A program made the translations under genes and the position numbers. Source: Candidatus Nealsonbacteria bacterium (GTDB lineage: Bacteria; Patescibacteriota; Minisyncoccia; Minisyncoccales; MHMH01). From it: a DNA stretch of 64,000 nucleotides. The DNA lies in NCBI GenBank assembly GCA_016188865.1, contig JACPGX010000001.1, positions 205,197-269,196 on the forward strand, read 5' to 3'. Below, in pieces: positions 133-51,401 of this stretch; position 1 is the stretch's first letter; each line of letters begins with the position of its first letter. The notes beneath the pieces are model-generated. The model was not told the origin of the DNA. It saw nothing but the letters and a program-made list of their open reading frames with translations, and did no database searches.

Positions 133-163
133 AAAAATACACCGGTTGAACCGGTGTATTTTT
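133..163. repeat. REP-1 hairpin, 3'-flank copy (aaaaatacaccggtt-g-aaccggtgtattttt)
   Basis: 31-nt perfect palindrome overlapping the RAYT-1 stop codon (162-164). The T-run makes it terminator-like. Confidence 0.9.
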
Positions 164-899
164 ATTCTAAAATTATATTTTTAATTATTTCGAAGCCGGA
201 TTTCAACTCAGTTTTATATAAAATCCAATCTTCAACAGATTTTTTAATTTTATCGGAACTGCCGAAAAATTCTGTAACGAAATCTCTTTTTGTAACTGAC
301 GGAAAATTTGGTATTCCGATATAATCTAAATAGCTAGACCAGCGATATGATTCCAAAAATTTAACAGCTTCCTCAACATCTTTTACTCCCACTTCTTTCC
401 AGTTTTTTTCTAATAATTCAAGCGGATTAGTAAATATATAACAAATCAAAGCCATTAATTGTCTATCATCTTCCACGTGAACTGCTTTAAAACGACCCTG
501 GAATAAAGCGCCAATCCCTTTTCTATTATATTTTTCATTAAAGTATCCAGTATAACCATTAGATAATTTTTTCATGAAAAGAGAAATCCCGCCATCAACT
601 AATTGATGCAAAATTAAATGGTAGTGATTTGGCATCAAACAAAAGCTAATAATCTCTACTAGCGGCTCTCTTTTATCTTTACGATCAGATACACCGGTTG
701 AACCGGTGTATTTCTTATTTTCTTTACGGATTTCTATACGGTCACGCATCTTAACTAATTTTTTATCATTTAATTCATAAAGACAAAAAATAAATCTAAA
801 ATTATCAGAGATTTGCTGAAAAATATTTCTTCTTTCTACTCCCCTATTAAAAATATGATAAATCTGGCCAGTAATAAATTTGGGTCGTTTTATTGCCAT
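162..899 (-). CDS. REP-associated tyrosine transposase-like protein (IS200/Y1 HUH family), paralog 1
   Basis: HUH strand FCLMPNHYHLIL and Tyr helix CYIFTNP. N-terminus MAIKRPKF..GQIYHIFNRG aligns with the paralogs at 26070 and 50608. Start trimmed from 929 to ATG 897-899 by that alignment. Confidence 0.85.
   Translation of the reverse strand: MAIKRPKFITGQIYHIFNRGVERRNIFQQISDNFRFIFCLYELNDKKLVKMRDRIEIRKENKKYTGSTGVSDRKDKREPLVEIISFCLMPNHYHLILHQLVDGGISLFMKKLSNGYTGYFNEKYNRKGIGALFQGRFKAVHVEDDRQLMALICYIFTNPLELLEKNWKEVGVKDVEEAVKFLESYRWSSYLDYIGIPNFPSVTKRDFVTEFFGSSDKIKKSVEDWILYKTELKSGFEIIKNIILE
689..711. repeat. REP-1 hairpin, internal in-frame copy
   Basis: atacaccggtt-g-aaccggtgtat lies inside the RAYT-1 ORF and is translated KYTGSTGVS. 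Confidence 0.9.
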
Positions 900-923
900 A
901 CCTAATTTAATATACCACATAAG

Positions 924-946
924 ATACACCGGTTCAACCGGTGTAT
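924..946. repeat. REP-1 hairpin, 5'-flank copy (loop base c instead of g)
   Basis: atacaccggtt-c-aaccggtgtat lies 24 nt upstream of the RAYT-1 ATG. Confidence 0.9.
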
Positions 947-6871: not shown

Positions 6872-8428
6872 TTATTTATTTTCAACCACCTTCCTGAATT
6901 TTTCAGTCGGAAAAAAGCCCATATACTTTCCCAGCATTAATCTAGTTTGGGCATCAATGGCCGGAATCGCCCCGAAAATCACTAAAGCAACTGGAAGAAA
7001 AAGCCATTGGGTCGCCATTGATAATAACTTTTTACGGGTAAAATGAAAAGCGCTGAAGCGAAGCAATAATGTGCTTACAATAATGCCTGCTACCAAACCT
7101 ACCAATGCTAATGTCATTAAATTGCTAGTTATCTGGGGAAGATTATAAGATAGGACCATTCCATTAAAATCGCTGCGCCCAAGCAGCAAGGGCAGCCAGC
7201 CCAAAAAAAGCAATAATAAGGCATTAGTCCCCCAGGCCCAAAAAGATTCTATCATTAAGAAGGCGTAGCGGAATTTTTTACGTAAAGATATTTTGTTATT
7301 TTTTAGAAATCCGAAAAGCAAATAAGGAATGCCTTCAGAGCCCCAGGCCCAGCGCCGCTGCTGTTTGTATTGATTAATAGCTGTCTGCCATGCATTCTTG
7401 GCAACGCAGGAATCCATTGATAAAGGATAATGAATCGGAATAATTTGGTAATCGCCGTCGTAAAATAAAAAAGCCTTCCAAAAAATTCCTGCGTCTTCTG
7501 AAACCACATTTTTTTGCCAAAAACCAATTTCCACCAATGCTTTAAAGCTCATTGAGTGAGATGAATAAGTGGTCAACTTTTCCGGCCTCTGCTGCTGCAT
7601 CATCTGCCAAAAAACATTAGAGGAAGAAACTATCCTGGAAAAAAATGGGGCCTCCAAAATATTGTTGAAATAAAGGGGAATCGGCTGAAAGCTTGATCTA
7701 ACTGCATCTTTGCTGGTCAAATAGTAGTAAGTCAAACAGTTGAAATATTGAGGATAGACTTGCGTGTCAGCGTCAAAACAGGAAACAATAATATTTTGAT
7801 AAGGAATTTTTAATTTATCGATAATCTCTTTCTTCGCCTGCCTGCCAGCCCAGCTTTCATTGGAACCTTTCCCGGCAATTTCGCCTTCAATGCCTTTGGG
7901 ATGGCGGGTTACCAGTAAACGGAAAAATTTATTTCCAAATTCTTTTTTTATTCCTTCTGCCATCTCTCTTGCTTGCAATTCAGCCCTTTCTTCTGTGGCC
8001 AGCACTGCAATTATTTTATCTTTCGGATATTTGCTGACAGCCAAAGCTTTAAAAGAGCCGCGCATTACTCTTAAATCTTCTTTATATGTCGGAAAAATCA
8101 CCAAATGGTATACTTCTTCCCAATTAGCCGCCGGCAGCTGATTTAATTTCTCTTGCCAATCAATATTTAAATTTTTTTTCATTTGCCTGTATTCTAAAGT
8201 TAAATGCAGCACAAAATGAATAGTCCTTAGCAGCCAATAAACGCAAAATCCGATGATAAAATAAGCAACAAAAACCGGAAAAAGCCAGGAAAAAACAGGC
8301 ATGCCGATTAAAGTGCTCCAAATTAAAACGCCGGGCAAAATTTCAAAAGCCCGATAAACTATTCTTTCTTTTTTATCTTTCAAATCAGTCGCTCTGCCGA
8401 TATTAATGTAATATTTATGAATAACCAT
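6872..8428 (-). CDS. Processive family-2 glycosyltransferase (cellulose/chitin-synthase-like), multi-TM
   Basis: FDADTQ and QQRRWAWG (QxxRW), with TM helices at both ends. Start trimmed to ATG 8426-8428, which overlaps the TAA of the upstream ORF (TAATG). Confidence 0.75.
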   Translation of the reverse strand: MVIHKYYINIGRATDLKDKKERIVYRAFEILPGVLIWSTLIGMPVFSWLFPVFVAYFIIGFCVYWLLRTIHFVLHLTLEYRQMKKNLNIDWQEKLNQLPAANWEEVYHLVIFPTYKEDLRVMRGSFKALAVSKYPKDKIIAVLATEERAELQAREMAEGIKKEFGNKFFRLLVTRHPKGIEGEIAGKGSNESWAGRQAKKEIIDKLKIPYQNIIVSCFDADTQVYPQYFNCLTYYYLTSKDAVRSSFQPIPLYFNNILEAPFFSRIVSSSNVFWQMMQQQRPEKLTTYSSHSMSFKALVEIGFWQKNVVSEDAGIFWKAFLFYDGDYQIIPIHYPLSMDSCVAKNAWQTAINQYKQQRRWAWGSEGIPYLLFGFLKNNKISLRKKFRYAFLMIESFWAWGTNALLLLFLGWLPLLLGRSDFNGMVLSYNLPQITSNLMTLALVGLVAGIIVSTLLLRFSAFHFTRKKLLSMATQWLFLPVALVIFGAIPAIDAQTRLMLGKYMGFFPTEKFRKVVENK

Positions 8429-9009
8429 TATTTCTTGAATTCTTCTTTTGGCTTCAATATGCCGACGGCTGCAGCTAAAATAATTACAATTATTGTGAGA
8501 GTGAAAAATAAACCAATAATCCACAGCCATTCTTTCAATAATGCCAGAGAAAACTTTGCGTATAGCAAGGCGGAAATCATTAAAGCGAACCAGTAATCGA
8601 CTGGCAAATGCAAAAACCATTTTTTATGCCACAAAACATGCTCTCCCCAAAAACTTCTAAAATCGTACTTGGGATTAACAACAAACCACAGGAAATCCCA
8701 GATAATCACAACCAAAAATAGAAAAGAAAGGGCAGTGAATTCTGAAGAAAAATTCCATACTTTTCCAGCGAAATACGGATAATGCATGAAAATAAAAACC
8801 AGGCTAAAAACCAGCAAATGGTAAAGCGTCAATTCCCTGCCGCCCATAAACTTTCCATAAAGACGCGAATACCACTTAGATGAGACGGGCTTCCAAGTAG
8901 GCAAATTAGCCGCCCAGCCGGCTGCGCCCTCTATTTGCGTTTCCAAACCGGCCAGCACCAGACAGAACAAAAAAAGAAAAATAATTTGAATAAATAAATG
9001 AAAATCCAT
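8428..9009 (-). CDS. Polytopic membrane protein, unknown function
   Basis: 193 aa with about 6 hydrophobic segments. Translationally coupled to the GT2 gene. Confidence 0.6.
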   Translation of the reverse strand: MDFHLFIQIIFLFLFCLVLAGLETQIEGAAGWAANLPTWKPVSSKWYSRLYGKFMGGRELTLYHLLVFSLVFIFMHYPYFAGKVWNFSSEFTALSFLFLVVIIWDFLWFVVNPKYDFRSFWGEHVLWHKKWFLHLPVDYWFALMISALLYAKFSLALLKEWLWIIGLFFTLTIIVIILAAAVGILKPKEEFKK

Positions 9010-9025: not shown

Positions 9026-9067
9026 GAGGTCCGACCTCCCGACAAATATGACGGGAGGTCGGACCTC
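9026..9067. repeat. PE hairpin element, intergenic copy (gaggtccgacctcccg-10 nt-cgggaggtcggacctc)
   Basis: 16-bp perfect stem. Arms are identical to the copy inside tsaD (34384-34425). Confidence 0.9.
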
Positions 9068-9073
9068 CCAATA

Positions 9074-10084
9074 TTACTGAAACAGCTTTTTGGCTTCTTC
9101 CCAGATTTCTAGCTGATTCTGTTTCTCTTTCATCCAATACCACCATTCTGCTCCCCAGAAATAGATTTCCTTTAAACCTGTATCTCTGGCAAATCTAACA
9201 TTCTTTTGAAACTGCTCTAAACTCATCGTTTTTTTCTGCTCCTCTGGCAGACAATCGGCAATGCCTTGCGGACACCAGGGCTCCGCCTGAAGTTCGCCCA
9301 CAAACACTTCTTTGCCGAAAAATTTCTTTATAATTTGGGCTCTCCTCCAGTAGAAAATAGGCCTCAATGGATAGGTAATATAGGCTTTTATCTCTCCGAA
9401 CAAAACTTTCCGATGTAAGGTGGTGCTGACCATATCTCCCAGTTTAGCTGCTTTAATCCAAAAGGAAAACTCACCGCTGTCAGAAATAATCGCTGGTCTT
9501 GTTGGGTCTAAAGATTTTATCAGTTCTGTCTCTTTTTTCAAGAAATTTTTATCGAGCCTAATTGAGCATTCTCCGAACGGAAAAAATGGCTCATTCTCCA
9601 CCTGCCACGCCCAAATGGTCTTATTATCTTTATATCTATTTATTATTTTTTCTAAATATTCCAATAAAAAATTTCGACTTTTGATCCGCCAGCTGGCGGA
9701 TTGATTCTGAACTCTAATCCATTCAGGTTCATGGCATTCCGGCCAGCGGCCCGTCTTCACGCCAACTACCAGCAAAACATTTATCCCTCTTTTTTGGGCT
9801 TGCTCTATCTGCCAATCTAAATCTCCAAAATCATATTTTCCCTCTTTTTGCTCAATCAAATCCCAAAAAGTCAGTATCTTTATCTTTTTTACTCCAAGTT
9901 CATCGAGTAAAGCCAAATAGGTCCCCTGCCAATCCAACCCTAAATATTTAGCATGCTTTTGGGAAAAATTAACTCCCCAACTGATATCTGCGGCCGGCTT
10001 TACTGTACCAATAGATAAATAGCCGGCAAAAAGCAAAATAATATTTAAAATTCCGAATATAATCATTTTTATGATTCTTCTCAT
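9074..10084 (-). CDS. Membrane-anchored clan GH-A glycoside hydrolase (GH5-like)
   Basis: Signal anchor, WQVENEP acid/base motif, TIM-barrel-like pattern. Confidence 0.6.
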   Translation of the reverse strand: MRRIIKMIIFGILNIILLFAGYLSIGTVKPAADISWGVNFSQKHAKYLGLDWQGTYLALLDELGVKKIKILTFWDLIEQKEGKYDFGDLDWQIEQAQKRGINVLLVVGVKTGRWPECHEPEWIRVQNQSASWRIKSRNFLLEYLEKIINRYKDNKTIWAWQVENEPFFPFGECSIRLDKNFLKKETELIKSLDPTRPAIISDSGEFSFWIKAAKLGDMVSTTLHRKVLFGEIKAYITYPLRPIFYWRRAQIIKKFFGKEVFVGELQAEPWCPQGIADCLPEEQKKTMSLEQFQKNVRFARDTGLKEIYFWGAEWWYWMKEKQNQLEIWEEAKKLFQ

Positions 10085-10994: not shown

Positions 10995-12281
10995 TTAGAT
11001 GATTTGTTCAATATTCATTGTTCCCATTTTTTCTCCCTCAATAAAGCCCTCCATGGCAGCTTCAGCCAGATAGCCCTGCCGGATCCAATCATTAAGCCAC
11101 TGGTAAGCATATCTGGGATTTTCCTGCAGGCTGCCAAAACCTGATTTCAAAAGCCACCTTTTGTTAAATTCTTCCTGAGAACCAATGGGCGGGGCTATAA
11201 TTATGGGCAATCCCAAAGCAGAATAAAAAGAAAGCTCGGATGGCTTAGTCCACAAAATATCGGTTTTTCTCAGAGCTTCATTAAATTTCTGAAAATAATC
11301 TTCGATATTTTCTTCAAAAATAATCTCTATACTAGGATTGCCTTTTAGCTTTAATTTTTCTAAATTATGCTCAAAATATTCCTTAACTTTTTCTTTAATG
11401 CCAGCGACTAAAATCACCTTAAGTTCTTTCGCCCATATTTTTACTACCAGCGATTTAGCAATCTGGATGCCGATTTCTCTCTGAGCCCCGGCTCCTCCAA
11501 CGGCAAACATTATAGTTAAAGGATGGTCCGAAGATGATGGTAAGTTTCCAAGATAGGTTTCAAGCAAATGCTCGTATTTGCTAAGGTATCTTTTTTGCGG
11601 ATCTAAATTTAAAATTCTACTGCCCAAATCATCTTTAAGATTGCGCATTTCTTCCCCGTCAATAATATCTTGGGGCAAGGGATACCCTGTAAAAAAAATA
11701 TTCTCCGACTTTATCCCGTAAGCTTTAAGTCTCTCCACCACCCTAAGATTGGGAGCGCAATACTTTATTCTGCTCCTACCCGGCTCGAGGGGGGCCCAGG
11801 TTCTGGAAATGTCGGCATCGGCAACAACGCAAAAAATCTCGCCAGGGTAATTAAAGTATTCAGCCATAAAAGCTGGCACGAAAAACGTAGTGACAAATGG
11901 CAAATTTCCGTTCCTCAATTTTAATTCTTCAATAAGATGTCTGCCCCAGTTTTTTTTAATCAGGGAGTAAATTTGTTTTAGCTGAATATTCGACTTAGAC
12001 AAGTCTCTTTTGGGATAATAGCTTAAAATTTCTTGAAGCTTATCCATAACGGCAAAAGCCAGCTGACCAATGATGGGAATCCGTTTGATCCGGGAAATAA
12101 ATTCATAAAATTTTCTTGATTTTTCCCAGATATTCCTGTCTTTGGAAGGAATTCCTTCGTAATTGTTGGCATTGATGATTTTTCCCTCCAAAGCCAGGTG
12201 CCTCAAAGGATAAGCAGTCCTTTGGTGCCCGTAACCCATGTTTACCGCTACCACCCAGGCTTTTTTAGTTGTACTTGCCAT
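10995..12281 (-). CDS. GT-B glycosyltransferase, MGDG-synthase/UgtP-like
   Basis: N-terminal VAVNMGYGH motif and a central GGAGAQ. Overlaps the comEC stop by 34 nt. Confidence 0.5.
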   Translation of the reverse strand: MASTTKKAWVVAVNMGYGHQRTAYPLRHLALEGKIINANNYEGIPSKDRNIWEKSRKFYEFISRIKRIPIIGQLAFAVMDKLQEILSYYPKRDLSKSNIQLKQIYSLIKKNWGRHLIEELKLRNGNLPFVTTFFVPAFMAEYFNYPGEIFCVVADADISRTWAPLEPGRSRIKYCAPNLRVVERLKAYGIKSENIFFTGYPLPQDIIDGEEMRNLKDDLGSRILNLDPQKRYLSKYEHLLETYLGNLPSSSDHPLTIMFAVGGAGAQREIGIQIAKSLVVKIWAKELKVILVAGIKEKVKEYFEHNLEKLKLKGNPSIEIIFEENIEDYFQKFNEALRKTDILWTKPSELSFYSALGLPIIIAPPIGSQEEFNKRWLLKSGFGSLQENPRYAYQWLNDWIRQGYLAEAAMEGFIEGEKMGTMNIEQII

Positions 12282-13684
12282 ACACGTTTATTGTACCACC
12301 AAATAAAGCCAAACAGAATGAAATAAAAAACTATCAGCCAAAGCCAGTGCAAATTGCCCACAGCCATGGAAACTAACGGCATTTTGCTAAACCAATCAAC
12401 AATTTTCGTAATATATGTCAAAGAAAGCCAAACGGGCCAAGACAATAAAAACCCAAGAGGTTGCAAGATAATACCGAAAATTGCAAAAATAAAAATTAAG
12501 ATAGTAATTGGAGCCAAAAAGGGAACTATTAAAATATTAACAACAGGACTCAATAAGGATATTCTGCCAAAATTATAAGCTAAAATCGGCAAAGTAAAAA
12601 CTTGGGCCGAAAGAGTAGCAGATAAAGTGGTTCTTAATGGAAAAACTTTTGGATTAGGTAAAAGCCTTAGCCAATTTGAAAAATACGGCTCTAAATAAAT
12701 AAGGCCTAAAATGGCTAAAAAAGAAAGCTGGAAACCTACGTCTTTCGTCAAGAGAAAAGGATTTTGAACAAGCATAAAAGTTGCCGCAAAAAATACCGCT
12801 CTTGAGCCGGATGACATGCGTCCTAATTTTTTAGCTAAAATAAAAATAACGGCCATAATAAAAGCCCTGACAGCTGAAGCCTGGGCTCCGATCATTAAAA
12901 TGTAAAGAAAAAGCAAAACTATCGAAATATAAAACGGCGCAAAGGAAGATATTATAGAAGAAATAATGGTTATATTCATTCCGGAAACCGCCGCAATATG
13001 GCGGGTGCCGGTAATATTGAGCTTGTCTTTCCATTCTCGGGAAATATTAGATTCTTGGCCGAAAACTAATGCCTCCAAAAAACCTTCTTGCGGCGGCGAA
13101 ATAAAAGAACCGGCGGTATCTCTAAATTTATTTTTAAAAGATAAAATAATTTCCATTATCGGGTTGCCAAACCCGGAACTCATAAACTCAATTTTTGGAA
13201 AACTCATTACTGCCGTAATGCCGTCTTTTTTAAGATAATCACGATAGTTAAAATCATCGAAAACCGGCGGCATTTCCAAACGGCCAATAATTTTTAGTCT
13301 ATCCCCATAATTATATTTCGGATACCTCCCCGCCGTCACCAAAATCGGGCGAGAACCGTTCTCGCCCGATTTTATCACAAGCTTTATGCTAGCAGGCCTG
13401 ACATCGGGTTCTTTAACCACGATTCCGACAAACTCGACATTCCCTTCTTGGGGATAAACAATTTTTGACTCCGCCATCTGATACCGCCAAATTCCCAAAA
13501 CTAAAAACAGTAAGCAAAATCCGCCCGTAGCCAGTTTTTTATAACGCCAAAAAATTGAAATTAAAAATACTCCAATAATTAAAAAACCCAGTAAAAATAA
13601 CTGGGGCATAAAAATAAATGAACTCGCAAAAATTCCTCCTACAAACGCCAGACAAAAATACAAAAATATCCGCGACTTAGTCAT
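12248..13684 (-). CDS. comEC: ComEC/Rec2 DNA-uptake channel protein (no metallo-beta-lactamase domain)
   Basis: N-terminal TM plus OB-like region, HIAAVSGMNITI, many TM segments. Confidence 0.85.
   Translation of the reverse strand: MTKSRIFLYFCLAFVGGIFASSFIFMPQLFLLGFLIIGVFLISIFWRYKKLATGGFCLLFLVLGIWRYQMAESKIVYPQEGNVEFVGIVVKEPDVRPASIKLVIKSGENGSRPILVTAGRYPKYNYGDRLKIIGRLEMPPVFDDFNYRDYLKKDGITAVMSFPKIEFMSSGFGNPIMEIILSFKNKFRDTAGSFISPPQEGFLEALVFGQESNISREWKDKLNITGTRHIAAVSGMNITIISSIISSFAPFYISIVLLFLYILMIGAQASAVRAFIMAVIFILAKKLGRMSSGSRAVFFAATFMLVQNPFLLTKDVGFQLSFLAILGLIYLEPYFSNWLRLLPNPKVFPLRTTLSATLSAQVFTLPILAYNFGRISLLSPVVNILIVPFLAPITILIFIFAIFGIILQPLGFLLSWPVWLSLTYITKIVDWFSKMPLVSMAVGNLHWLWLIVFYFILFGFIWWYNKRVWQVQLKKPGW
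13341..13373. repeat. REP-3-like hairpin variant in-frame in comEC (aaaatcgggcgagaac-c-gttctcgcccgatttt)
   Basis: 33-nt perfect palindrome translated KSGENGSRPIL. It shares the core cgagaaccgttctcg with REP-3. Confidence 0.85.
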
Positions 13685-23973: not shown

Positions 23974-24009
23974 TGTGTACTATATATCACATATAGATGG
24001 AAAAGTCAA
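23958..24009. promoter_or_regulatory. Face-to-face promoters sharing one palindromic -10 box: TTGACA-17-TATATA-17-AGTCAA
   Basis: Plus strand: -35 at 23958-63 and -10 at 23981-86, driving mfd (ATG 23997). Minus strand: -35 is revcomp of 24004-09 with the same -10, driving the NUDIX leader. Confidence 0.55.
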
Positions 24010-26024
24010 CGGTGCCGGGTGTTAAATCGATTCTAATCGTCAGTATCAACCCCTACTTTTTAGACAGGGAGAATTTTTGGTTTGAAGAAAATATCAAACA
24101 AATACTGGAAGCGCGGAAAAATCAAACCTTCTTTCAAGATAATACCATATATGTAGACGTAGAAAAAAGCCCCGCCTTCGCCAAGGCTTCGGCGGGCAAG
24201 CAGAAAATTAAGCTTTCTGAATTTTTAAGAAAAATTGATGAAATGGGCTATGAAAAAGTTCAAAAGGTCTCCGAGCCCGGAGAATTTTCCCGCCAAGGAG
24301 GAATTATTGATATTTTCCCGTTAAATATAAATTGTGCCGTTAGAATTGAATTTTTCGGCAACTCAATAGAAAACATGGAAAAACTGCCCATTATTATTGA
24401 AAATGAAAAAGAAATCAAAGAAAGAATAAAAAATAAACTGAAAAGGCAGAAAATTTACTCGCAATTGGGAACATTAAAGCCGGGTGATTATTTGGTGCAT
24501 CTAGACCACGGCGTCGGAATTTACAGAGGTCGGACCTCCCAAGGAGGTCCGACCTCAAACGACTCAAACGATTACTACACATTGGAATATGCCCAGAACG
24601 ATAAACTCTATGTTCCGATTGGGCTGGAAAGAAAACTTTCAAGATATGTTGGATTTTCAGAGCCGAAAATATCGCGGCTAAGCTCGCCCGTCTGGATAAA
24701 CACCAAAAGAAAAATTAAAGAAGAAACTGAAAAACTAGCTAAAGAACTTTTGGAAATTTACGCCCAGAGAGAAATTTCAACTCGCCCATATTATATAGAA
24801 GATACGGAAATTGACGCCTTGCTGGCAAGTACTTTTGTTCACGAAGAAACTCCGGATCAAATCCAAGCCATGGAAGAAATTAAAAAAGATTTGGAAGAAA
24901 AAGAAGAGCCAATGGACAGAATTGTTTGCGGCGACGTGGGTTTTGGCAAAACTGAAATTGCCTTAAGGACCATTATTAAAGCGGTCAATTCCGGATATCA
25001 ATCGGCTTTGATTTGCCCAACCACTATTTTGGCCTCGCAGCATTGCCAGACTTTCCAAAAAAGAATTGGTGATCTTCCGATAAAAGTTGAATTATTAAGC
25101 CGTCTTCAATCAAAGAGGGAGCAGAAACAAATAATTCAAAATATCAAAGATGGCAAAACAGATATCGTTATAGGAACCCACCGCCTTTTATCAAATGACG
25201 TTAACTTTAAAAACTTAGGATTGCTGGTTATTGACGATGAACAAAGATTCGGAGTCAGGCAGAAAGAAAAATTAAAAAAAATAAGGACTTCCCTAGATGT
25301 TTTATCGCTTTCAGCCACGCCAATTCCCAGAACCCTCTACTTGGCCATGTCTTCTTTAAAAGATATCAGCATAATTCAAACGCCGCCTGCTCAACGGCTT
25401 CCGATTAAAACTTTGGTAAAACCATGGTCAAAAGAAATCATTAAAAAGGCAATTCAGGAAGAAATTTCGCGCAACGGCCAAGTTTATTACCTGCACAATC
25501 GCGTAGAAACTATTGAAACAGCAAAAAAATTGCTGGAAGATTTACTGCCGAAAGTAAAATTTGGAATTATCCACGGCAAAATGGAAGAAAAAAATTTAAT
25601 AAAGATAATGGATGATTTTACCAATAAAAAAATTGGCGTTTTAATCGCTACCACCATTATTGAAAACGGCCTGGACCTGCCCAATGTCAACACTTTAATT
25701 GCGGCCAATGCCGCCAAACTCGGACTTTCCCAGGCATATCAAATAAGAGGCAGAATCGGCAGGTCGCACATTCAGGCATTCGCTTATTTCTTGCATGGCG
25801 GCAATCTTTCTGAGCTAGCAAAGGAAAGATTAAGAGCTTTAAAAGAGGCGGAAGAGCTTGGTTCGGGATACCGAATTGCCATGAAAGATTTGGAACTTCG
25901 GGGCGCCGGCAACATTCTAGGAAAAGAGCAATCAGGCAACATCAACCATGTGGGACTGAATCTATATTGTCAAATGTTATCCGATGCGATTGAAAAACTG
26001 AAGGCTTACGATTATAATAAATAA
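23997..26024 (+). CDS. mfd: Transcription-repair coupling factor Mfd (short form, 675 aa)
   Basis: RNAP-interaction module PGDYLVHLDHGVGIY, helicase motifs DVGFGKTE and DDEQRFG, and a TRG-like region. Confidence 0.9.
   Translation: MEKSTVPGVKSILIVSINPYFLDRENFWFEENIKQILEARKNQTFFQDNTIYVDVEKSPAFAKASAGKQKIKLSEFLRKIDEMGYEKVQKVSEPGEFSRQGGIIDIFPLNINCAVRIEFFGNSIENMEKLPIIIENEKEIKERIKNKLKRQKIYSQLGTLKPGDYLVHLDHGVGIYRGRTSQGGPTSNDSNDYYTLEYAQNDKLYVPIGLERKLSRYVGFSEPKISRLSSPVWINTKRKIKEETEKLAKELLEIYAQREISTRPYYIEDTEIDALLASTFVHEETPDQIQAMEEIKKDLEEKEEPMDRIVCGDVGFGKTEIALRTIIKAVNSGYQSALICPTTILASQHCQTFQKRIGDLPIKVELLSRLQSKREQKQIIQNIKDGKTDIVIGTHRLLSNDVNFKNLGLLVIDDEQRFGVRQKEKLKKIRTSLDVLSLSATPIPRTLYLAMSSLKDISIIQTPPAQRLPIKTLVKPWSKEIIKKAIQEEISRNGQVYYLHNRVETIETAKKLLEDLLPKVKFGIIHGKMEEKNLIKIMDDFTNKKIGVLIATTIIENGLDLPNVNTLIAANAAKLGLSQAYQIRGRIGRSHIQAFAYFLHGGNLSELAKERLRALKEAEELGSGYRIAMKDLELRGAGNILGKEQSGNINHVGLNLYCQMLSDAIEKLKAYDYNK
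24526..24556. repeat. PE hairpin element, short-loop copy in-frame in mfd (gaggtcggacctcc-caa-ggaggtccgacctc)
   Basis: 14-bp perfect stem translated RGRTSQGGPTS. The arm sequence matches the copies at 9026 and 34384. Confidence 0.9.
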
Positions 26025-26030: not shown

Positions 26031-26057
26031 AATCTTACGAGGCGAAGCCTCGTAAAT
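26031..26057. repeat. REP-2 hairpin, 5'-flank copy (ttacgaggc-gaa-gcctcgtaa)
   Basis: Lies 12 nt upstream of the RAYT-2 ATG. Confidence 0.9.
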
Positions 26058-26069: not shown

Positions 26070-26783
26070 ATGAAGAGAGTAATATTCGCCAAAGATCAAA
26101 TCTATCATGTTTATAATCGCGGTGTAGAAAAACGAAATATCTTTTTAGATGATAAAGATTATTTTCGGTTTATTCACAATCTCTTTGAATTTAACGATGA
26201 AAAACCAGCAGAAAATATTTATTATAAACAACCAATGCTTCAGTCGCAGAAAATACAATCTTACGAGGCTTCGCCTCGTAAGATTAATATGCCTAGAAAA
26301 TTACTAGTAGAAATTATGGCATTTTGTCTGATGCCCAATCACTATCATTTATTGCTAAGACAAAAACAAGATAGGGGGATCACCAGATTTATGCAAAAAT
26401 TAGGTACTGGATATTCTATGTATTTTAATCAAAAGCACGAAAGAACCGGAATTTTATTCCAGGGACCGTTCAAGGCCATTTTAGTCGATAGGGAAACTTA
26501 TTTTTATTATTTACCATATTACATTCACTTTAATCCCCTAGATTTGATTGAGCCAGAATGGAGAAATGGCAAAATTAATAATTACAAAGAAGCCTTAAAT
26601 TTTCTGGAAAATTATCGCTGGTCAAGCCATCTTGATTATATTGGCAAGAAAAATTTTCCCTCGGTGACCCAACGGGAATTTCTTTTAGAATACCATCAAA
26701 ATGGAAACCGATATAAACAATCTATTGAAAATTGGCTAAAAGAAATACAACTAGAAAAAATAAAAGATATAATGCTGGAATAA
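26070..26783 (+). CDS. REP-associated tyrosine transposase-like protein (IS200/Y1 HUH family), paralog 2
   Basis: DQIYHVYNRG, FCLMPNHYHLLL, YYIHFNP. Confidence 0.85.
   Translation: MKRVIFAKDQIYHVYNRGVEKRNIFLDDKDYFRFIHNLFEFNDEKPAENIYYKQPMLQSQKIQSYEASPRKINMPRKLLVEIMAFCLMPNHYHLLLRQKQDRGITRFMQKLGTGYSMYFNQKHERTGILFQGPFKAILVDRETYFYYLPYYIHFNPLDLIEPEWRNGKINNYKEALNFLENYRWSSHLDYIGKKNFPSVTQREFLLEYHQNGNRYKQSIENWLKEIQLEKIKDIMLE
26257..26285. repeat. REP-2 hairpin, internal in-frame copy (loop inverted: ttc)
   Basis: aatcttacgaggc-ttc-gcctcgtaagatt, translated QSYEASPRKI. Confidence 0.9.
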
Positions 26784-26854: not shown

Positions 26855-28882
26855 ATGCAACTAATTATAGTAGAAAGTCCGACTAAATCTAAGACGCTTC
26901 AAGGTTTTTTGGGGCCTCAATATAGGGTCCTTTCTTCTTATGGACACATCCGTGATTTGCCGAAAAGTGAGCTTGGCGTTGATGTGGAAAAAAACTTCCA
27001 GCCGAAATACGTAATTCCGGCAAAGGCGAAAAAAACTATAAAAACGCTTACTGAAGCGGTTAAAGAAACTGACTCAACCATTTTGGCCACCGATGAGGAC
27101 AGAGAAGGAGAAGCTATTTCCTGGCATCTCATTAAGGCCCTAAAACTGGACGGCGAAAAAGAGCCGTACCAAAGAATCGTTTTCCATGAAATCACAAAAC
27201 AAGCCGTGGAAGAAGCTTTAAAAAATCCCAGAAAAGTTGACATGAATCTGGTGGACGCCCAGCAGGCAAGAAGGATTCTGGACAGAATTGTCGGCTACAA
27301 GCTGTCTCCGTTCTTATGGAAAAAAATCGCCCGAGGACTTTCAGCCGGCAGAGTGCAATCGGTGGCAGTTAGACTTGTTGTGGAACGCGAAAGAGAAATA
27401 GAAAAATTTAAACCAGACGAGTACTGGACGATTGAAGCCCGGCTCCGACGGAATGAAGCCGGGCTTCTCTCGCCAGAATTTACGGCTTCTTTGGCTAAAA
27501 AAGACGAGAAAATTTTAGATAAGCTTTTTATTAAAAATGAAAAAGAAGCTAAAGAAATAGTAAATAATTTGGGAGGAGCTGAATATAGGATTAGTAATAT
27601 CGAGAAAAAAGAAACAACAAAGAATCCTTATCCGCCGTTTACCACTTCAACATTACAGCAGGAGGCCTGGAGACGTTTTAAATTTCCGGCGAAATTTACC
27701 ATGCGCCTGGCGCAGAATCTTTATGAAAAAGGCTTTATTACTTATCACAGAACGGATTCTTTAAACCTTTCTGATTTAGCGTTAGGAATCGCAAAAAAAT
27801 TCATCACGGAAAATTATGGTCAAACTTATTACCAATTCAGAAAATATAAAGCCAAGGGCCGCGCCCAAGAAGCCCACGAAGCAATCAGGCCGGCTTACCC
27901 GGAAAAAATGGAAATTGAAACCGATGAGCCGGGGGCAAAATTATATAACTTGATTTGGAAAAGATTTATTGCCTGCCAAATGTCGCAAGCCGTTTTTGAT
28001 TCAACAGCGGTTGATATTAATGCGAAAAATTATGGTTTTAGGGCCAACGGCCAAATTCTAAAGTTTGACGGATTTTTAAAGGTTTACCCGATAAAATACG
28101 AGGAGTCGGAACTTCCAAATTTGAAAAAAGATGATATTTTAGAATTGCTCAAACTTTCTCCTCTGCAGCATTTTACTCAGCCACCGGCAAGATACAGCGA
28201 AGCCACTCTGATTAAAGCCTTGGAACAGGAGGGAATAGGACGCCCCTCAACCTATGCCCCGGTTATTTCTACTATTCAGGAAAGAAATTACATTGAAAAA
28301 GATGAAAAAAAATTCTTCAAGCCGACAGAAATAGGCATTGTAGTAAATGATGTTTTGGTAAGACATTTTCCTCAAATAGTTGATATTAAATTTACCGCAT
28401 CAATGGAAGAAGACCTGGATAAAATAGCCGAAGGCGAAAAGAAATGGGAAAAAGTCATGGAAGAATTTTATCGCCCCTTTGAAGAAAATCTTAAAAAAAA
28501 ATATAAAGAAGTTTCAAAAAAAGAATTTACCGAGGAGCCGACTAAAAAAAAATGCCCCAAATGCGGCTCGCCTTTGTTGATCAGATTAGGCAGGTACGGC
28601 AAATTCTATGCCTGCTCGACTTTCCCAAAATGCAATTATACCGAATCACTGCCTAAAAATATCTTAGGAATAAAATGCCCGAAGTGTAATGAGGGGCAGC
28701 TTGTGGAAAAAAGAACGGCCAAGAGGAAAATCTTTTACGGCTGCAATAAGTACCCTAATTGCAATTTTGCTTTATGGGATAAGCCTATCGGAGATAAATG
28801 CCCCAAGTGCGATTCCCTATTGGTGAAAACTAAAAGAAAACAAATCAAATGCTCAAATAAGGACTGCGACTACGCAAGGTGA
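26855..28882 (+). CDS. topA: DNA topoisomerase I with C-terminal zinc ribbons
   Basis: TOPRIM domain (IVESPTK, DEDREGE), active-site YHRTDS, and repeated CPKC zinc-ribbon motifs. Confidence 0.96.
   Translation: MQLIIVESPTKSKTLQGFLGPQYRVLSSYGHIRDLPKSELGVDVEKNFQPKYVIPAKAKKTIKTLTEAVKETDSTILATDEDREGEAISWHLIKALKLDGEKEPYQRIVFHEITKQAVEEALKNPRKVDMNLVDAQQARRILDRIVGYKLSPFLWKKIARGLSAGRVQSVAVRLVVEREREIEKFKPDEYWTIEARLRRNEAGLLSPEFTASLAKKDEKILDKLFIKNEKEAKEIVNNLGGAEYRISNIEKKETTKNPYPPFTTSTLQQEAWRRFKFPAKFTMRLAQNLYEKGFITYHRTDSLNLSDLALGIAKKFITENYGQTYYQFRKYKAKGRAQEAHEAIRPAYPEKMEIETDEPGAKLYNLIWKRFIACQMSQAVFDSTAVDINAKNYGFRANGQILKFDGFLKVYPIKYEESELPNLKKDDILELLKLSPLQHFTQPPARYSEATLIKALEQEGIGRPSTYAPVISTIQERNYIEKDEKKFFKPTEIGIVVNDVLVRHFPQIVDIKFTASMEEDLDKIAEGEKKWEKVMEEFYRPFEENLKKKYKEVSKKEFTEEPTKKKCPKCGSPLLIRLGRYGKFYACSTFPKCNYTESLPKNILGIKCPKCNEGQLVEKRTAKRKIFYGCNKYPNCNFALWDKPIGDKCPKCDSLLVKTKRKQIKCSNKDCDYAR
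27434..27467. repeat. GC-rich hairpin in-frame in topA (gaagcccggct-12 nt-agccgggcttc)
   Basis: 11-bp perfect stem translated EARLRRNEAGLL. Sits in a segment that varies between TopA proteins recalled from memory. Confidence 0.75.
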
Positions 28883-32815: not shown

Positions 32816-33094
32816 ATGGCTGAAAATCCAAACCAAGAGAAAAAAACAGATCCTCTAATGCAGGAATTTCACGAAACAAAAAATGCCATTAAGGAAAATC
32901 TTTTGACATTGGTTGTAGCAGCGTTTACTTTAGTAGCTGCTTTGGCATGGAATGATGCTGTTCAAAGCTTAGTCAAGACTATTTTTCCCCAAGGCAATGG
33001 AGGAATTATTAGTAAATTCGTTTATGCCATTATTGCCACTATTATAGTGGCTGTGATTTCTTTGCGATTGAGAAAAATCGCTGCAAAAAAATAA
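32816..33094 (+). CDS. Small 2-TM membrane protein
   Basis: GGAGGTG RBS. 92 aa. The 3' end overlaps the convergent PAP2 gene by 53 nt. Confidence 0.6.
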   Translation: MAENPNQEKKTDPLMQEFHETKNAIKENLLTLVVAAFTLVAALAWNDAVQSLVKTIFPQGNGGIISKFVYAIIATIIVAVISLRLRKIAAKK

Positions 33095-33584
33095 TAGTTA
33101 ACCAGCCAGAAATAACGCCGACTATCGCTCCGGCTAAAATATCTGAAGGCCAATGAACTCCCGCAAAAACGCGCGCAATTGAAATTAAGAAGCTGGCAAT
33201 AAAAACCCATATGCCGGCTTTTTTGTTATATTTATAAACAACAAAAGACAGGGCAAAGAAAAAAGCAGCATGACCCGAAGGAAAAGACGCTTGATTGACT
33301 TTATCAATAAGCAAATTGATATGGTTTTCAATGAAAGGTCGCGGCCTTGGCCACAGCCAGCGAATCAATTCCACAACAGCAAAACGAGCAATAAATGACG
33401 CTAAAAATGCCTGAAAAATTATTTTCCATTTATTTACCTGCCTGCCGGCAGGCAGGTAGAATAATAAAATAATTAAAGCAACTAAAATATAGCCAAGATA
33501 TTTGGCGGAAAAAACAGCTAAATTATCCAGCCAAGCATATTGGCCTGCTAAATTATTTATTTTTTGGAATAAAAAATAGTCCAT
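33042..33584 (-). CDS. PAP2-family phosphatase (undecaprenyl-diphosphatase-like)
   Basis: PSGHAA and SRVFAGVHWPSD motifs, with several TM segments. Confidence 0.85.
   Translation of the reverse strand: MDYFLFQKINNLAGQYAWLDNLAVFSAKYLGYILVALIILLFYLPAGRQVNKWKIIFQAFLASFIARFAVVELIRWLWPRPRPFIENHINLLIDKVNQASFPSGHAAFFFALSFVVYKYNKKAGIWVFIASFLISIARVFAGVHWPSDILAGAIVGVISGWLTIIFLQRFFSIAKKSQPL
33435..33458. repeat. 24-nt loop-less perfect palindrome tacctgcctgcc|ggcaggcaggta in-frame in the PAP2 gene
   Basis: Translated YLPAGRQV. A GC-rich island within an AT-rich gene. Confidence 0.8.
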
Positions 33585-33586: not shown

Positions 33587-34648
33587 TTAGGAGATCCGTA
33601 AATTAGCTTCGGCTTTAATATTTTTTCTGACGTCTTTTCTGTGGAAATAAGCAGTTGCGGCCACCATTGCGGCATTGTCGGTGCACAAATTTTTTGGCGG
33701 AACCAAAAAATTTAGTTTATAGTTTAGAGTTTTTAGTTTATAGTCGAATTGTTTTCTTAACTCTTCATTCGCTGCTACGCCGCCTCCAAGAATGATTGAT
33801 TTTACTCCAAAATCCCTTGCTGCCTTTATGGTCTTATGCATCAAAACATCAATTATCGCCTGCTGAACTTCGTAACACATCTCTATTTTATCATAATTAC
33901 CCTTTTTTACTTTATATAATACGGCTGTTTTAAGACCGGAAAAACTAAAATCATAATTTTTTTGCCTAATCATCGGCCTCGGCAGTTGGTCGGAAACCCG
34001 ACGTCCGACCATTTTTGCGGCTGTGGCTGCAATAGCTGGGCCACCGGGATAGCCGAGGCCTAAAATCCTGGCAACCTTATCAAGGCATTCGCCAGCTGCG
34101 TCATCACGAGTTTCGCCTATTAATTTATATTTTCCGATAGCTTTCATCAAAACTAACTGCGTATGCCCACCCGACACCACCAAAGCCACCGCCGGAAAAA
34201 CTATTGAGGCCGGGCCTCCATAGTGTTCGCTAATGAAATTGGCGAGAATGTGCGCTTCGATGTGGTTGACTGAAATTAATGATTTTTTATATTTTTTTGC
34301 AATTTCTTTGGCAAAGTTGATCCCCTGCCATAAACAGGGTTCTAATCCTGGGCCGACGGTCACGGTGACGAAATCAATTTTTAGAGGTCCGACCTCCCGT
34401 AATATTTTTCGGGAGGTCGGACCTCCTAATATTCTCAAAACTTTTTCAAAGACAACCGGTAAATTCTTTTGATGCTCGCGTTTCGCTAAGAAGGGATAAA
34501 CCCCTCCATATTTTGCGTGGATTTTCACTTGCGAAGAGACTGTATTTGATATAATTTTGAAATTAGAATTTTTTACTTCCAGTAAAGCAATGGCTGTATC
34601 ATCGCAGGAAGTGTCAATTCCTAATATCTTAATATTTTGGGAGGCCAT
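33587..34648 (-). CDS. tsaD: tRNA N6-adenosine threonylcarbamoyltransferase TsaD
   Basis: GIDTSCDDT, VNHIEAH, CTDNAAM. Confidence 0.95.
   Translation of the reverse strand: MASQNIKILGIDTSCDDTAIALLEVKNSNFKIISNTVSSQVKIHAKYGGVYPFLAKREHQKNLPVVFEKVLRILGGPTSRKILREVGPLKIDFVTVTVGPGLEPCLWQGINFAKEIAKKYKKSLISVNHIEAHILANFISEHYGGPASIVFPAVALVVSGGHTQLVLMKAIGKYKLIGETRDDAAGECLDKVARILGLGYPGGPAIAATAAKMVGRRVSDQLPRPMIRQKNYDFSFSGLKTAVLYKVKKGNYDKIEMCYEVQQAIIDVLMHKTIKAARDFGVKSIILGGGVAANEELRKQFDYKLKTLNYKLNFLVPPKNLCTDNAAMVAATAYFHRKDVRKNIKAEANLRIS
34384..34425. repeat. PE hairpin element, in-frame copy inside tsaD
   Basis: gaggtccgacctcccg-10 nt-cgggaggtcggacctc, translated GGPTSRKILREVGP. This gives about 11 extra residues relative to E. 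coli TsaD as recalled. Confidence 0.9.
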
Positions 34649-35154
34649 ATGGTTAAATCAATAACTTTTGATGGTTTGGCTTTTTTAAGATTGCCAGCAT
34701 CAACCGCCAAGTCGGGCTGATGCCTTTTGCCTTCAAATTGTTTTATCACTTCTTTAATTTTCGTTGAAGCCGGCTGGCCTGATATATTCGCCGAAGTTTC
34801 CGCCAAAGGGCCCGTGTGCTTGACTAAGTCAAGCACAAATTTATAGTTAGGAATGCGAATACCGGGCTTTTTATAATGAAAAACCGCTGTCACCGGCCCC
34901 GGCCAAACTCGTTTAAGAAATTTTTCCTGTCTGGGATTGATCTCGGCTAATTTTTTAGCCATTTTGATATCGCTGACAAAAATAGGTATCAATTTATTTT
35001 TGGGCCTCTTTTTTATTTTATATAATCTTGCAACCGCTTCTTTATTCCCGGCATCGCAAATCAACCCGTAAACTGTATCGGTGGGACAAATAATCACTTT
35101 GCCCTCCTTTATGGCCTTAATTACTTTTTTAAGATTTGGCTTGGTAATCTCCAT
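34621..35154 (-). CDS. tsaC: L-threonylcarbamoyladenylate synthase (TsaC/YrdC/Sua5 family)
   Basis: PTDTVYGL and SANISG. Confidence 0.9.
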   Translation of the reverse strand: MEITKPNLKKVIKAIKEGKVIICPTDTVYGLICDAGNKEAVARLYKIKKRPKNKLIPIFVSDIKMAKKLAEINPRQEKFLKRVWPGPVTAVFHYKKPGIRIPNYKFVLDLVKHTGPLAETSANISGQPASTKIKEVIKQFEGKRHQPDLAVDAGNLKKAKPSKVIDLTIWPPKILRY

Positions 35155-44330: not shown

Positions 44331-44339
44331 CTTTTTCTG

Positions 44340-51364: not shown

Positions 51365-51401
51365 ATTATAACGGAATAAATTTAAATGAAAAGCCCTGAG
51401 C

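Follow-up and report, generated by a model that had tools for sequence, protein, structure and literature searches.

The question raised by this locus is how a perfect hairpin came to lie in frame within mfd, and to what kind of element it belongs. The source organism is a tiny groundwater bacterium represented by a Candidatus Nealsonbacteria MAG, and the window referred to below is the whole 64-kb stretch of its DNA that was analysed. The two arms at 24526-24556 are complementary at 14 of 14 positions around a loop of 3 nt, which gives a perfect 31-base hairpin, and the stretch is translated as R177-GRTSQGGPTS-187, directly C-terminal to HLDHGVGIY. The hairpin consists of a pair (doublet) of 13-15-nt units, GGAGGTC-S-GACCTCC, each itself palindromic with an asymmetric C/G centre. 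The sequence-only reading had described a short-loop palindrome giving RGRTSQGGPTS, identical in kind to two further copies in the window (9026-9067 and 34384-34425) and with the arms in swapped order; all of this was borne out, and the swapped order corresponds to one of the two known REPIN doublet orientations. The coordinates are collected in the table.

Features of the mfd element, its sister copies and the RAYT-like genes in the 64-kb window (strand as reported; a dot marks strandless features)
Feature	Position	Strand	Remarks
Truncated mfd, host gene (675 aa)	23997..26024	+	phmmer, Pfam
Arm 1 of mfd doublet	24526..24539	.	GAGGTCGGACCTCC; GAGGTC-G-GACCTC plus C, G-centred; read (R)GRTS
Spacer CAA (Gln182)	24540..24542	.	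3 nt; aligns with E. coli Mfd L499
Arm 2 of mfd doublet	24543..24556	.	GGAGGTCCGACCTC; G plus GAGGTC-C-GACCTC, C-centred; read GGPTS
9-nt tandem duplication	24555..24572	+	TCAAACGAC/TCAAACGAT (SND-SND); adjoins arm 2
Second doublet, C-centred arm first	9026..9067	.	Intergenic; stem 16 bp, loop 10 nt; -39.3 kcal/mol
Third doublet, arms in opposite order to mfd	34384..34425	.	In frame in tsaD; encodes GGPTSRKILREVGP
tsaD, host gene of third doublet	33587..34648	-	
Single diverged unit	34206..34219	.	GAGGCC-G-GGCCTC; second tsaD loop; encodes GGPAS
RAYT-like Y1 transposase gene, immediately 3' of mfd	26070..26783	+	Own palindrome CTTACGAGGC-nnn-GCCTCGTAAG
CTTACGAGGC-nnn-GCCTCGTAAG copies	26035-26055; 26257-26285; 26783-26811		26257-26285 in frame within gene 26070..26783
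Second RAYT-like gene	162..929	-	Own palindrome ACACCGGTT-s-AACCGGTGT
ACACCGGTT-s-AACCGGTGT copies	133-163; 689-711; 924-946		689-711 within gene 162..929
Third RAYT-like gene	50608..51333	-	Own palindrome CTGACGAGAAC-s-GTTCTCGTCAG
CTGACGAGAAC-s-GTTCTCGTCAG copies	50565-50609; 51134-51162; 51332-51366		51134-51162 within gene 50608..51333

Matches to the 14-mer with at most two mismatches number 13 in the window, against 0.09 expected from shuffles. Folded as RNA, the mfd hairpin reaches -29.9 kcal/mol (z=-6.6; none of 200 shuffles was equally stable), and the folding energies of the doublets span -28 to -39 kcal/mol with z of -5 to -9. Rfam found only a tRNA above the gathering score in the whole window and no match to the element; at E up to 1, nothing significant appeared in the region 24400-24700.

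The window contains three doublets and one single unit, and all of its exact units (6/6) are paired. The intergenic doublet sits between the ORFs 9074..10084(-) and 8428..9009(-). At the tsaD doublet site, exactly 36 nt are absent from the nearest TsaD ortholog (P0122), which has kept the half arm GGACCTC, and the comparison of filled and empty sites leaves an ambiguity of only 3 nt (GGA). The diverged unit in the second tsaD loop has remained self-complementary despite both of its changes. Like the Mfd site, the TsaD insertion site is a hypervariable loop, and the palindrome does yield GGPTS from genes on either strand, mfd (+) and tsaD (-), as had been proposed.

The host ORF is Mfd (phmmer E=7e-156 to E. 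coli Mfd), with the Pfam domains UvrB_inter, CarD_TRCF_RID (residues 160-218), DEAD and Helicase_C. The RNAP-interaction domain, CarD_TRCF_RID, covers about 24474-24650, and its first beta-hairpin is lengthened by the element. The placement of the element in a loop agrees with an AF2 model, in which a low-confidence tip (183-190, pLDDT below 50) lies between the strands 172-181 and 192-198. In E. coli Mfd, L499 is an RNAP-contact residue, and an L499R phenotype has been published (PMC5910403).

Was the element added to this loop, or did it replace it? The region is about two residues longer than in E. coli Mfd, which holds in the HMMER alignment, and from this replacement had been proposed rather than simple addition. 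That proposal fails against closer relatives. The nearest element-free ones have a 6-aa loop (AGFSND in P0002; also P0004, P0033 and P0007) where the window has 16 aa, and the mfd DNA of the window shows a net gain of 30 nt over P0002, the 9-nt tandem duplication included; it is thus a coincidence that the length nearly equals that in E. coli. TCAAACGAT occurs once only in the element-free ortholog P0002, and no flanking duplication was found on comparing its empty site with the filled site of the window. Among 120 Nealsonbacteria orthologs, the segment from HG.G.[YF] to LYVP ranges from 17 to 43 aa, and the beta-hairpin tip in the clade from 6 to 32 residues. In one ortholog (L002), the whole loop consists of the element plus one codon, so that the lineage has evidently seen losses of loop sequence as well as gains; the arms of L002 and of the window are identical, though the two Mfd proteins share only 74% identity. 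Other lineages have unrelated perfect palindromes in the same loop, one of 36 nt in L013 and TCACGATCGTGA in L009 and L014. In an NJ tree of Mfd, element-bearing orthologs are scattered among element-free ones; the tree is poorly resolved, and at this resolution the Mfd sequences may reflect either one gain or repeated gains.

Differences between the arms of orthologous copies (L004, L019 and L147) are compensated in six out of six cases, and the palindromy inside each arm decays while the arms stay complementary to one another. Orthologs also hold different versions of the element at the same protein sites, which may reflect, as far as the sequences go, ancient vertical inheritance with change in place or repeated targeting. 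Doublets recur at the same loop of Mfd, TsaD, DprA and class I tRNA synthetases across species. No presence/absence polymorphism was found between near-identical genomes, so the mobility of the element is something that we infer rather than observe.

Scanning metagenomes by the doublet pattern returned at least 120 stretches with at least 131 copies, at least 112 of them distinct. Among the matches listed, the spacers are 1 to 25 nt long and frequently self-pairing. The centre bases are complementary in 126 of the 131 doublets listed (CG in 91, GC in 35 and CC or GG in 5, the mfd copy being of the G..C type), where random orientation predicts that about half would be non-complementary. Besides mfd, the hosts of the GGAGGTC-S-GACCTCC unit are tsaD, DprA, RecG, class I tRNA synthetases, the 3' end of serS and intergenic sites. 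Of the 112 distinct copies listed, 42% are genic (47 within ORFs of at least 150 aa), 33% intergenic-like and 25% ambiguous, compared with about 87% coding sequence. The unit adjoins G...C, beyond which the sequence varies; its foot shows no conserved tetranucleotide of the GTAG or CGTC kind, CGTC following the unit only in some subfamilies. Flanks often prolong the palindrome, and tandem duplications adjoin hairpins. Next to the unit, AATWTT-N-G occurs in the flanks, which may be a target preference or the outer stem of longer subfamilies; the empty alleles compared are too diverged or are deletion derivatives themselves. The doublet pattern had no match in IMG/VR viral contigs, which gives no hint of carriage by phages.

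The unit is free of stop codons in all six frames. As to a preferred frame giving GGPTS, 20 of the 47 dereplicated genic copies listed read the arms as EV[RG]P, 16 as G[PR]TS and 11 as RSDL (chi-square p=0.27). Because all three frames are used without bias, GGPTS is not special. By the criterion of the sequence-only reading itself, this speaks for tolerated insertions, and the idea of a selected peptide is rejected on frame usage.

What, then, moves or maintains the unit? A connection with Y1 transposases, absent from the sequence-only reading, appears in the window itself, where three RAYT-like paralogs have palindromes of their own. The layout of upstream, internal in-frame and downstream copies is shared by several paralogs, each with its own palindrome, these three included. 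In several paralogs the palindrome is found both at the gene ends and, in frame, in a variable segment just ahead of the HUH motif. No transposase gene flanked by GAGGTC-type units was found in the window, the palindromes of its three RAYT-like genes being different ones; the gene next to mfd is context only and not the cognate enzyme of the mfd element. Elsewhere, in the metagenome loci L053/L108 and L095, the GGAGGTC-S-GACCTCC unit lies just 5' of a Y1_Tnp gene and again within the same gene; in L053/L108 the gene is also followed closely by diverged, inverted units, and none was seen downstream of the L095 gene. Peptides encoded by the unit (RSDL, EV[RG]P) are present in 35 of the 120 homologs nearest to the L095 protein, mostly in a variable segment before the HUH motif. 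The metagenome loci were picked by the doublet pattern itself, so plain co-occurrence with transposase genes is not significant by itself, and the weight is carried only by the position-specific layout and the 120-homolog check.

All seven proteins examined score above the gathering threshold of Pfam Y1_Tnp (30-43 bits; cut-off 23), and the HUH and Y..NP motifs are found in the RAYT-like proteins. In NCBIfam, REP_Tyr_transpos is the sole match, at 36-45 bits against a cut-off of 80. An AF2 model of a RAYT-like protein (pLDDT 86) has as its top PDB fold match 4ER8 (E=3e-6, target-normalised TM 0.67), a REP-associated tyrosine transposase in complex with a REP hairpin, which outranks the TnpA proteins of ISDra2 and IS608. 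A phmmer search of the PDB with a RAYT-like protein of the window found nothing, and a profile search reached ISDra2 TnpA only (E=0.002), 4ER8 being reached by the fold search alone.

Since the unit flanks and invades Y1/HUH genes whose products match Pfam Y1_Tnp and have 4ER8 as best fold match, the best reading of the mfd hairpin is that it is, very probably, a REPIN-like element made of two inverted REP-type units with a 3-nt spacer, the unit being the cognate repeat of a RAYT-like Y1 clade. The RAYT-like Y1 (HUH) clade with the GGAGGTC-S-GACCTCC cognate repeat is found widely among Patescibacteria. If its enzyme works like the TnpA of IS200/IS605 and the TnpA-REP of E. coli, it would bind the unit hairpin in single-stranded DNA, then cut and rejoin DNA, and doublets would thereby be copied to new sites. 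With a genome that is about 87% coding, many insertions would land in genes; surviving genic copies would be those that keep the frame, are free of stops and lie in permissive loops. In Mfd, such a site would lie in the RNAP-interaction domain, where the first beta-hairpin has its tip, the element being tolerated there because the surface loop is hypervariable. Once inserted, a copy may persist at an orthologous site with its arms perfectly complementary, which could be due to selection for a usable hairpin or to hairpin-templated correction, and partial deletion of copies would leave half-arm footprints.

One rival explanation would be a fixed, vertically inherited hairpin selected for a function in mfd mRNA or DNA, such as translational pausing, an RNase site or a replication or repair signal. 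The identity of the arms in the window and L002 at 74% Mfd identity, the fully compensated arm changes (6/6) and the unrelated perfect palindromes filling the same loop in L013, L009 and L014 would all fit. However, 25 of the 120 orthologs, the closest ones included, have a hairpin-free 6-aa loop, and orthologs with a 10-aa loop likewise have no perfect hairpin with a stem of at least 10 bp there; moreover, the unit also occurs in tsaD, DprA, RecG, class I tRNA synthetase genes, the serS 3' end and between genes, shows no frame preference and is tied to transposase genes, so that we consider this explanation decidedly improbable. Another possibility is a selfish or mutational palindrome without a dedicated transposase, whether similar to the Rickettsia RPEs or CGTC-type REPs or produced by template-switch 'palindromisation' or short-patch gene conversion. 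Flank-extended palindromes and abutting tandem duplications fit replication slippage or template switching, the window lacks a cognate transposase gene, and CGTC-type REPs and RPEs provide a precedent (PMC3733652). Yet units are found at the canonical REPtron sites, both around and within the genes of one Y1 clade, the paralogs share this layout with a palindrome peculiar to each, and template switching cannot account for identical 14-nt arms at unrelated loci in different species; this alternative is quite unlikely.

Patescibacteria are thought to depend on DNA uptake, which would favour an uptake signal or another host protein-binding site whose inverted pairs double as terminators, as in the DUS pairs of Neisseria. 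The window encodes ComEC, the element is found elsewhere in DprA, and intergenic copies lie between co-directional genes. Known uptake sequences, however, occur about once per kb, against 11 exact units in 368 kb of DNA chosen irrespective of the pattern, and the exact unit is present in only 3 of 22 related genomes sampled; the units are almost solely perfectly complementary pairs and are specifically associated with Y1 transposase genes, which leaves this explanation very unlikely. Finally, metagenome assembly can produce inverted chimeras, and the Logan contigs of the organism, which are short, break near the RAYT-like genes and the repeats, so an assembly or amplification artefact, for example a chimeric inverted duplication in the MAG, might be suspected. 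Against this, the 675-aa Mfd is otherwise intact and stays in frame, independent assemblies and studies share the insertion (L002, L081 and L092; P0022-P0030 from NCBI, JGI and ENA), and open frames are kept across hundreds of copies. The exact Mfd protein is also recorded on an NCBI MAG contig of 271 kb, and the exact TsaD protein, with its own copy of the element, in NCBI and Logan assemblies, which makes an artefact extremely unlikely.

The preferred REPIN-like reading leaves room for a further idea, namely that the RAYT-like transposases and repeats of Patescibacteria are more than tolerated parasites, with hairpins acting as self-recognition or autoregulatory cis sites, or with genic hairpins under selection. 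We hold this to be rather doubtful; if genic hairpins were selected, they could serve, for example, as handles for single-stranded DNA processing in genes of DNA metabolism. In annotation, the 11 unusual Mfd residues, and similar stretches in TsaD, DprA, RecG and tRNA synthetases of these organisms, are to be taken as repeat-derived and not as lineage-specific functional motifs. For the study of mobile elements, the results suggest that Patescibacteria have REPIN/RAYT-like systems, each genome with several paralogs. Such systems are unexpected there, given the minimal intergenic space of these bacteria and the tendency of genomes with tnpA-REP genes to be larger, as found in a survey (PMC6006769). 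The high share of in-frame genic copies also offers a natural test of where proteins can accept 10-15 extra residues in a loop, one tolerant site being the Mfd hairpin that in E. coli bears the RNAP-contact residue L499.

How does the element compare with known systems? The closest is REPIN-RAYT of Pseudomonas and Enterobacteria, with which it shares an inverted pair of short imperfect palindromes with a variable, often self-pairing spacer, two doublet orientations set by the asymmetric unit centre, one repeat type per transposase paralog, a transposase gene flanked by its own repeat (REPtron) and an enzyme with a probable Y1/HUH fold, for which 4ER8 is the closest match. Two doublet orientations (AA-TT versus TT-AA in SBW25) and variable spacers are REPIN traits (PMC3337134). 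It differs in its Patescibacteria host; in a 13-15-nt, almost perfectly palindromic unit without a GTAG tag, although atypical REP classes without the tag are on record (PMC6006769); in the location of about 40% of the copies, among the matches listed, within genes, an extragenic location being typical of REPs, although intragenic ones are documented (PMC3733652); and in transposases that are longer (about 220-255 aa), fall below the NCBIfam RAYT cut-off, carry an in-frame copy of their own repeat ahead of the HUH motif and occur as three paralogs within 64 kb.

With IS200/IS605 elements and PATEs, the likeness would lie in a Y1/HUH transposase that recognises hairpins in single-stranded DNA, and it lies in the lack of a clear target-site duplication. 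Unlike IS200/IS605, the transposase gene here has no distinct, co-moving left-end and right-end structures, and the repeated entity is the 30-70-nt hairpin alone. The element does not fit a MITE, which has the terminal inverted repeats of an IS and a target-site duplication; here the whole element is a hairpin with a variable centre and no clear target-site duplication.

Rickettsia palindromic elements were reportedly described by Ogata et al. in 2000. GTAG and CGTC REPs and RPE-4/-6, like the present element, occur as single units and dimers in frame in probably functional genes, to which they add roughly 10-30 residues. In 2013, Di Nocera et al. described REP dimers inserted in frame into repair and tRNA synthetase genes, and CGTC-type REPs and RPEs that lie in frame in genes yet have no dedicated transposase (PMC3733652). 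The hosts of such intragenic elements are often repair or replication genes and tRNA synthetases, here Mfd, RecG, DprA, a class I aaRS, SerRS and TsaD; mfd itself is not named among the hosts in the main text of that paper. The present element differs from intragenic REPs and RPEs in its sequence, in having no GTAG or CGTC tag and in its host phylum, and from CGTC REPs and RPEs in that a dedicated transposase clade is identifiable here only. A literature search found no report joining RAYT or REPIN with Patescibacteria or CPR. The mfd hairpin very probably belongs to a known kind of element; what differs is the Patescibacteria host, the tag-less unit and the transposase genes that bear their own repeat in frame.

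The hairpin in mfd is a real feature: GAGGTCGGACCTCC-CAA-GGAGGTCCGACCTC forms a perfect 14-bp inverted repeat around a 3-nt spacer, folds as RNA at -29.9 kcal/mol (z = -6.6), and its 14-mer, with up to two mismatches, occurs 13 times in the window where 0.09 occurrences would be expected. The explanation that fits best is a REPIN-like doublet from a repeat family tied to RAYT-like (REP-associated tyrosine) transposases, a doublet that Mfd tolerates in one of its hypervariable loops. The sequence-only reading had placed it in-frame right after HLDHGVGIY and had described its arms as swapped; inspection of the ORF and the sequence confirmed both. Each arm, GAGGTC-S-GACCTC, is itself palindromic with an asymmetric centre base, so the swapped order is the second of two possible inverted arrangements, the G-centred arm coming first in mfd whereas the C-centred arm comes first elsewhere in the window. 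Inspection of the unit 15-mer in all six frames shows no stop codon (TAA, TAG or TGA). The host is a Candidatus Nealsonbacteria MAG of about 40% GC, and an identical Mfd protein is recorded from an NCBI contig of 271 kb. The 9-nt tandem duplication beside the hairpin (TCAAACGAC/TCAAACGAT) may be due to slippage provoked by it; the peptide NNSDN in the Mfd ortholog P0031 suggests a duplication of this type there too.

Features of the window, with coordinates in nucleotides
Feature	Coordinates	Strand	Remarks
mfd ORF	23997..26024	+	675 aa
Doublet in mfd	24526-24556		in-frame
9-nt tandem duplication	24555-24572		directly 3' of the mfd hairpin, adjoining arm 2
Second doublet	9026-9067		intergenic; arms in order opposite to mfd copy
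Third doublet	34384-34425	-	in-frame in tsaD; arms in order opposite to mfd copy
Single diverged unit GAGGCC-G-GGCCTC	34206-34219		second tsaD loop
RAYT-like gene 1	162..929	-	own palindrome at 133-163, 689-711 (internal), 924-946
RAYT-like gene 2	26070..26783	+	just after mfd; own palindrome at 26035-26055, 26257-26285 (internal), 26783-26811
RAYT-like gene 3	50608..51333	-	own palindrome at 50565-50609, 51134-51162 (internal), 51332-51366
Palindrome in ComEC ORF 12248..13684	13341-13373		perfect
Palindrome in topoisomerase I ORF 26855..28882	27434-27467		perfect
Palindrome in PAP2 protein ORF 33042..33584	33435-33458		perfect
Palindrome in ORF 34621..35154	34815-34837		perfect
Small palindrome AAAGGACGC-tag-GCGTCCTTT	55975-55995, 58113-58133, 58587-58607		three copies
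Hairpins flanked by A-run/T-run	28894-28923, 44306-44364		intergenic
NifU_N protein gene	4156-5631	-	491 aa

The host ORF encodes a shortened Mfd (E = 7e-156 against E. coli Mfd, with residues 150-670 aligned to 467-988 and 70-132 to 135-197) containing the Pfam domains UvrB_inter, CarD_TRCF_RID (160-218), DEAD and Helicase_C. Mfd proteins of this clade have about 650-675 residues versus 1148 in E. coli, and the alignment suggests that they lack the C-terminal autoinhibitory domain and the greater part of the N-terminal UvrB-homology module. The element encodes R177-GRTSQGGPTS-187, next to HLDHGVGIY. In an AlphaFold model (mean pLDDT 66), residues 172-181 and 192-198 form a beta-hairpin with a low-confidence tip (183-190), so the element is predicted to lengthen a surface hairpin of Mfd. 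The alignment bore out the earlier remark that the region is close in length to that of E. coli Mfd, but not the proposal that the element had replaced loop sequence: the nearest element-free relatives (P0002, with AGFSND, P0004, P0033 and P0007) have a 6-residue loop versus 16 residues here, and the mfd DNA of the window is here a net 30 nt longer than that of P0002, the 9-nt duplication included, so that the likeness in length to E. coli is a coincidence. In E. coli, the L499R substitution abolishes RNAP binding by Mfd (PMC5910403). L499 aligns on Q182, inside the element, in a HMMER alignment that is only approximate in this variable loop; since the segment is shortened or replaced in the clade, an L499-type contact is evidently not conserved here.

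Among 120 Mfd orthologs (67-80% identity), the segment from HG.G.[YF] to LYVP is 17-43 residues long, and many carry an identical or diverged element at the same loop: GGRTSVGGPTS in P0022-P0030 and at locus L002, RGRTSPGGSTS in P0031, GGRTSIIDKGGSAS in P0050/L004, and RGSTS..GGRTS in P0061, P0062 and P0070. In other lineages, unrelated perfect palindromes are found there (36 nt in L013; TCACGATCGTGA in L009 and L014). That of L013 (positions 1780-1815) is centred on CGATCG at the hairpin tip, and a large ortholog group (P0080-type) has, at the protein level, a 12-residue insert, PEGKPSASYGAG, at this tip. Element-bearing orthologs are scattered among element-free ones in a neighbour-joining tree of Mfd, a pattern that would fit both one old gain followed by losses and repeated gains.

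A scan of metagenome contigs for exact doublets gave at least 120 stretches; the matches listed, together with the window and the Mfd loci, make up at least 131 copies (at least 112 distinct). Their spacers, of 1-25 nt, group in subfamilies, and many prolong the stem. Among the matches listed, 91 doublets have the centre bases C..G and 35 have G..C, just five being non-complementary, and the hosts are diverse (GC 32-61%; common housekeeping proteins 43-85% identical). Where a unit stands alone, it usually forms the centre of a simple palindrome of greater length. The distribution is lineage-specific: of 22 related genomes whose DNA was unselected for the pattern, just 3 have exact units.

Of the 112 distinct copies listed, 47 lie inside ORFs of at least 150 aa and 37 where there is no long ORF, the location of the other 28 being ambiguous. 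Coding sequence makes up about 87% of the window, so that genes host fewer copies than their share of the DNA would predict, which fits purifying selection against genic insertions. The proteins bearing the element include Mfd, RecG, DprA, a class I aminoacyl-tRNA synthetase, TsaD and SerS, where it lies at the 3' end and provides the last residues and the stop codon. For several of them, the version that orthologs have at this loop has another frame, spacer or orientation. Spacers of 4 nt or less occur in 14 of the 47 genic copies listed versus 3 of the 37 between genes. A preference for the GGPTS frame, which the sequence-only reading had put forward as a point to check, was not found: the arms of the 47 listed read EV[RG]P (20), G[PR]TS (16) or RSDL (11; p = 0.27), and arm-to-arm spans in the copies listed are spread evenly over the three residues modulo 3. 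This even usage, along with the lack of stop codons in any frame of the unit, makes GGPTS one of three equally usable readings.

In tsaD, the nearest ortholog, P0122, has exactly 36 nt fewer than the window, its junction being TTAG|GACCTCTAAAA versus TTAG[GAGGTCC...GGTCG]GACCTCTAAAA. The simplest account of P0122 would be a deletion derivative, since it retains half an arm and the element is present in P0124, which is more distant. The arms of P0124, GGTTCGACC and GGTCGAACC, are a compensated pair. In the orthologous copies at loci L004, L019 and L147, all six arm differences are matched by a complementary change in the opposite arm, and self-complementarity within single arms decays; these observations point to a constraint, or a correcting mechanism, acting on the pairing between arms. 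The second tsaD loop gathers repeats too: at the site of the window's single unit, the L001/L147 genome (L147 being L001 21790-21845) has a perfect palindrome of 56 nt whose arms are GGAGTC-S-GACTCC, and there is a tandem duplication, YGGQN-YGGPAS, in P0122. In many TsaD orthologs (P0134, P0154, P0158, P0159, P0169 and others), these two loops hold long inserts of low complexity, for example NPKSQIPNSKFQIPN, SNFQFPISNFQ and GKNSKFKIQNSKL; such inserts resemble the translation of short DNA repeats from yet a different family.

Scanning for ORFs with the motifs IYHIxNRG, CLMPNHxHLL (HUH) and YIHxNPV revealed three RAYT-like Y1 transposase paralogs within 64 kb. Pfam Y1_Tnp was passed by all seven RAYT-like proteins tested, and their sole NCBIfam match was the REP-associated tyrosine transposase, under its cut-off. 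A perfect palindrome particular to each of the three genes lies immediately upstream and immediately downstream of it and, once, in-frame within it, a layout shared by several paralogs at other loci; the internal copy comes after FEFNDEK and before the HUH motif, in a segment that is variable. No transposase cognate to the GAGGTC unit was found within the 64-kb window. In two independent genes elsewhere, at loci L053/L108 and L095, the palindrome is the GAGGTC-S-GACCTC unit. Of the 120 homologs closest to the L095 protein, 35 contain unit-encoded peptides, mostly in the pre-HUH variable segment; every one of these with a source name is annotated as a transposase or a hypothetical protein, and most come from Patescibacteria. 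When the AlphaFold model of the L095 protein (pLDDT 86) is compared with the PDB, 4ER8, which is the E. coli REP-associated tyrosine transposase in complex with a REP hairpin, ranks first (E = 3e-6), and the TnpA structures of ISDra2 and IS608 come after it. We infer that the element is mobile and that the enzyme is specific for its unit.

Logan contigs L143 and L144 (SRR12113419-22, same organism) end at or beside a RAYT-like gene and its palindromes, and these repeats evidently fragment short-read assemblies; many RAYT-like homologs lie on contigs of 1-5 kb. The ComEC palindrome and the repeat of the third RAYT-like gene have a GAGAAC-s-GTTCTC core in common. The small repeated palindromes and the A-run/T-run hairpins look like bidirectional terminators or further REP families. 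The NifU_N protein, with the Pfam families listed for the identical gene in L143, appears to be split by an intein with a LAGLIDADG endonuclease.

REPINs are inverted REP doublets with variable, self-pairing spacers and two orientations arising from an asymmetric palindrome centre (PMC3337134), and the GAGGTC-unit element matches them in each respect. As a rule, each REP type has a single tnpA-REP gene, and REPs of that type often border the gene to form a REPtron (PMC6006769), a pattern that the RAYT-like genes match. REPs and REP dimers are also known in-frame within genes, notably those of DNA repair and replication and of tRNA synthetases, a set to which Rickettsia RPE-4 and RPE-6 belong (PMC3733652); the element likewise occurs in repair genes and tRNA synthetases. 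In the literature searched, we found no report joining RAYTs or REPINs with Patescibacteria or CPR. Unlike typical REPs, however, the GAGGTC unit has no GTAG or CGTC tag, is a very short, near-perfect palindrome and has a high genic share of copies; the transposases are longer than known RAYTs, score under the NCBIfam equivalog cut-off and have an in-frame copy of their own repeat; three paralogs in 64 kb and another host group, the Patescibacteria, further distinguish this system from known REP-RAYT systems.
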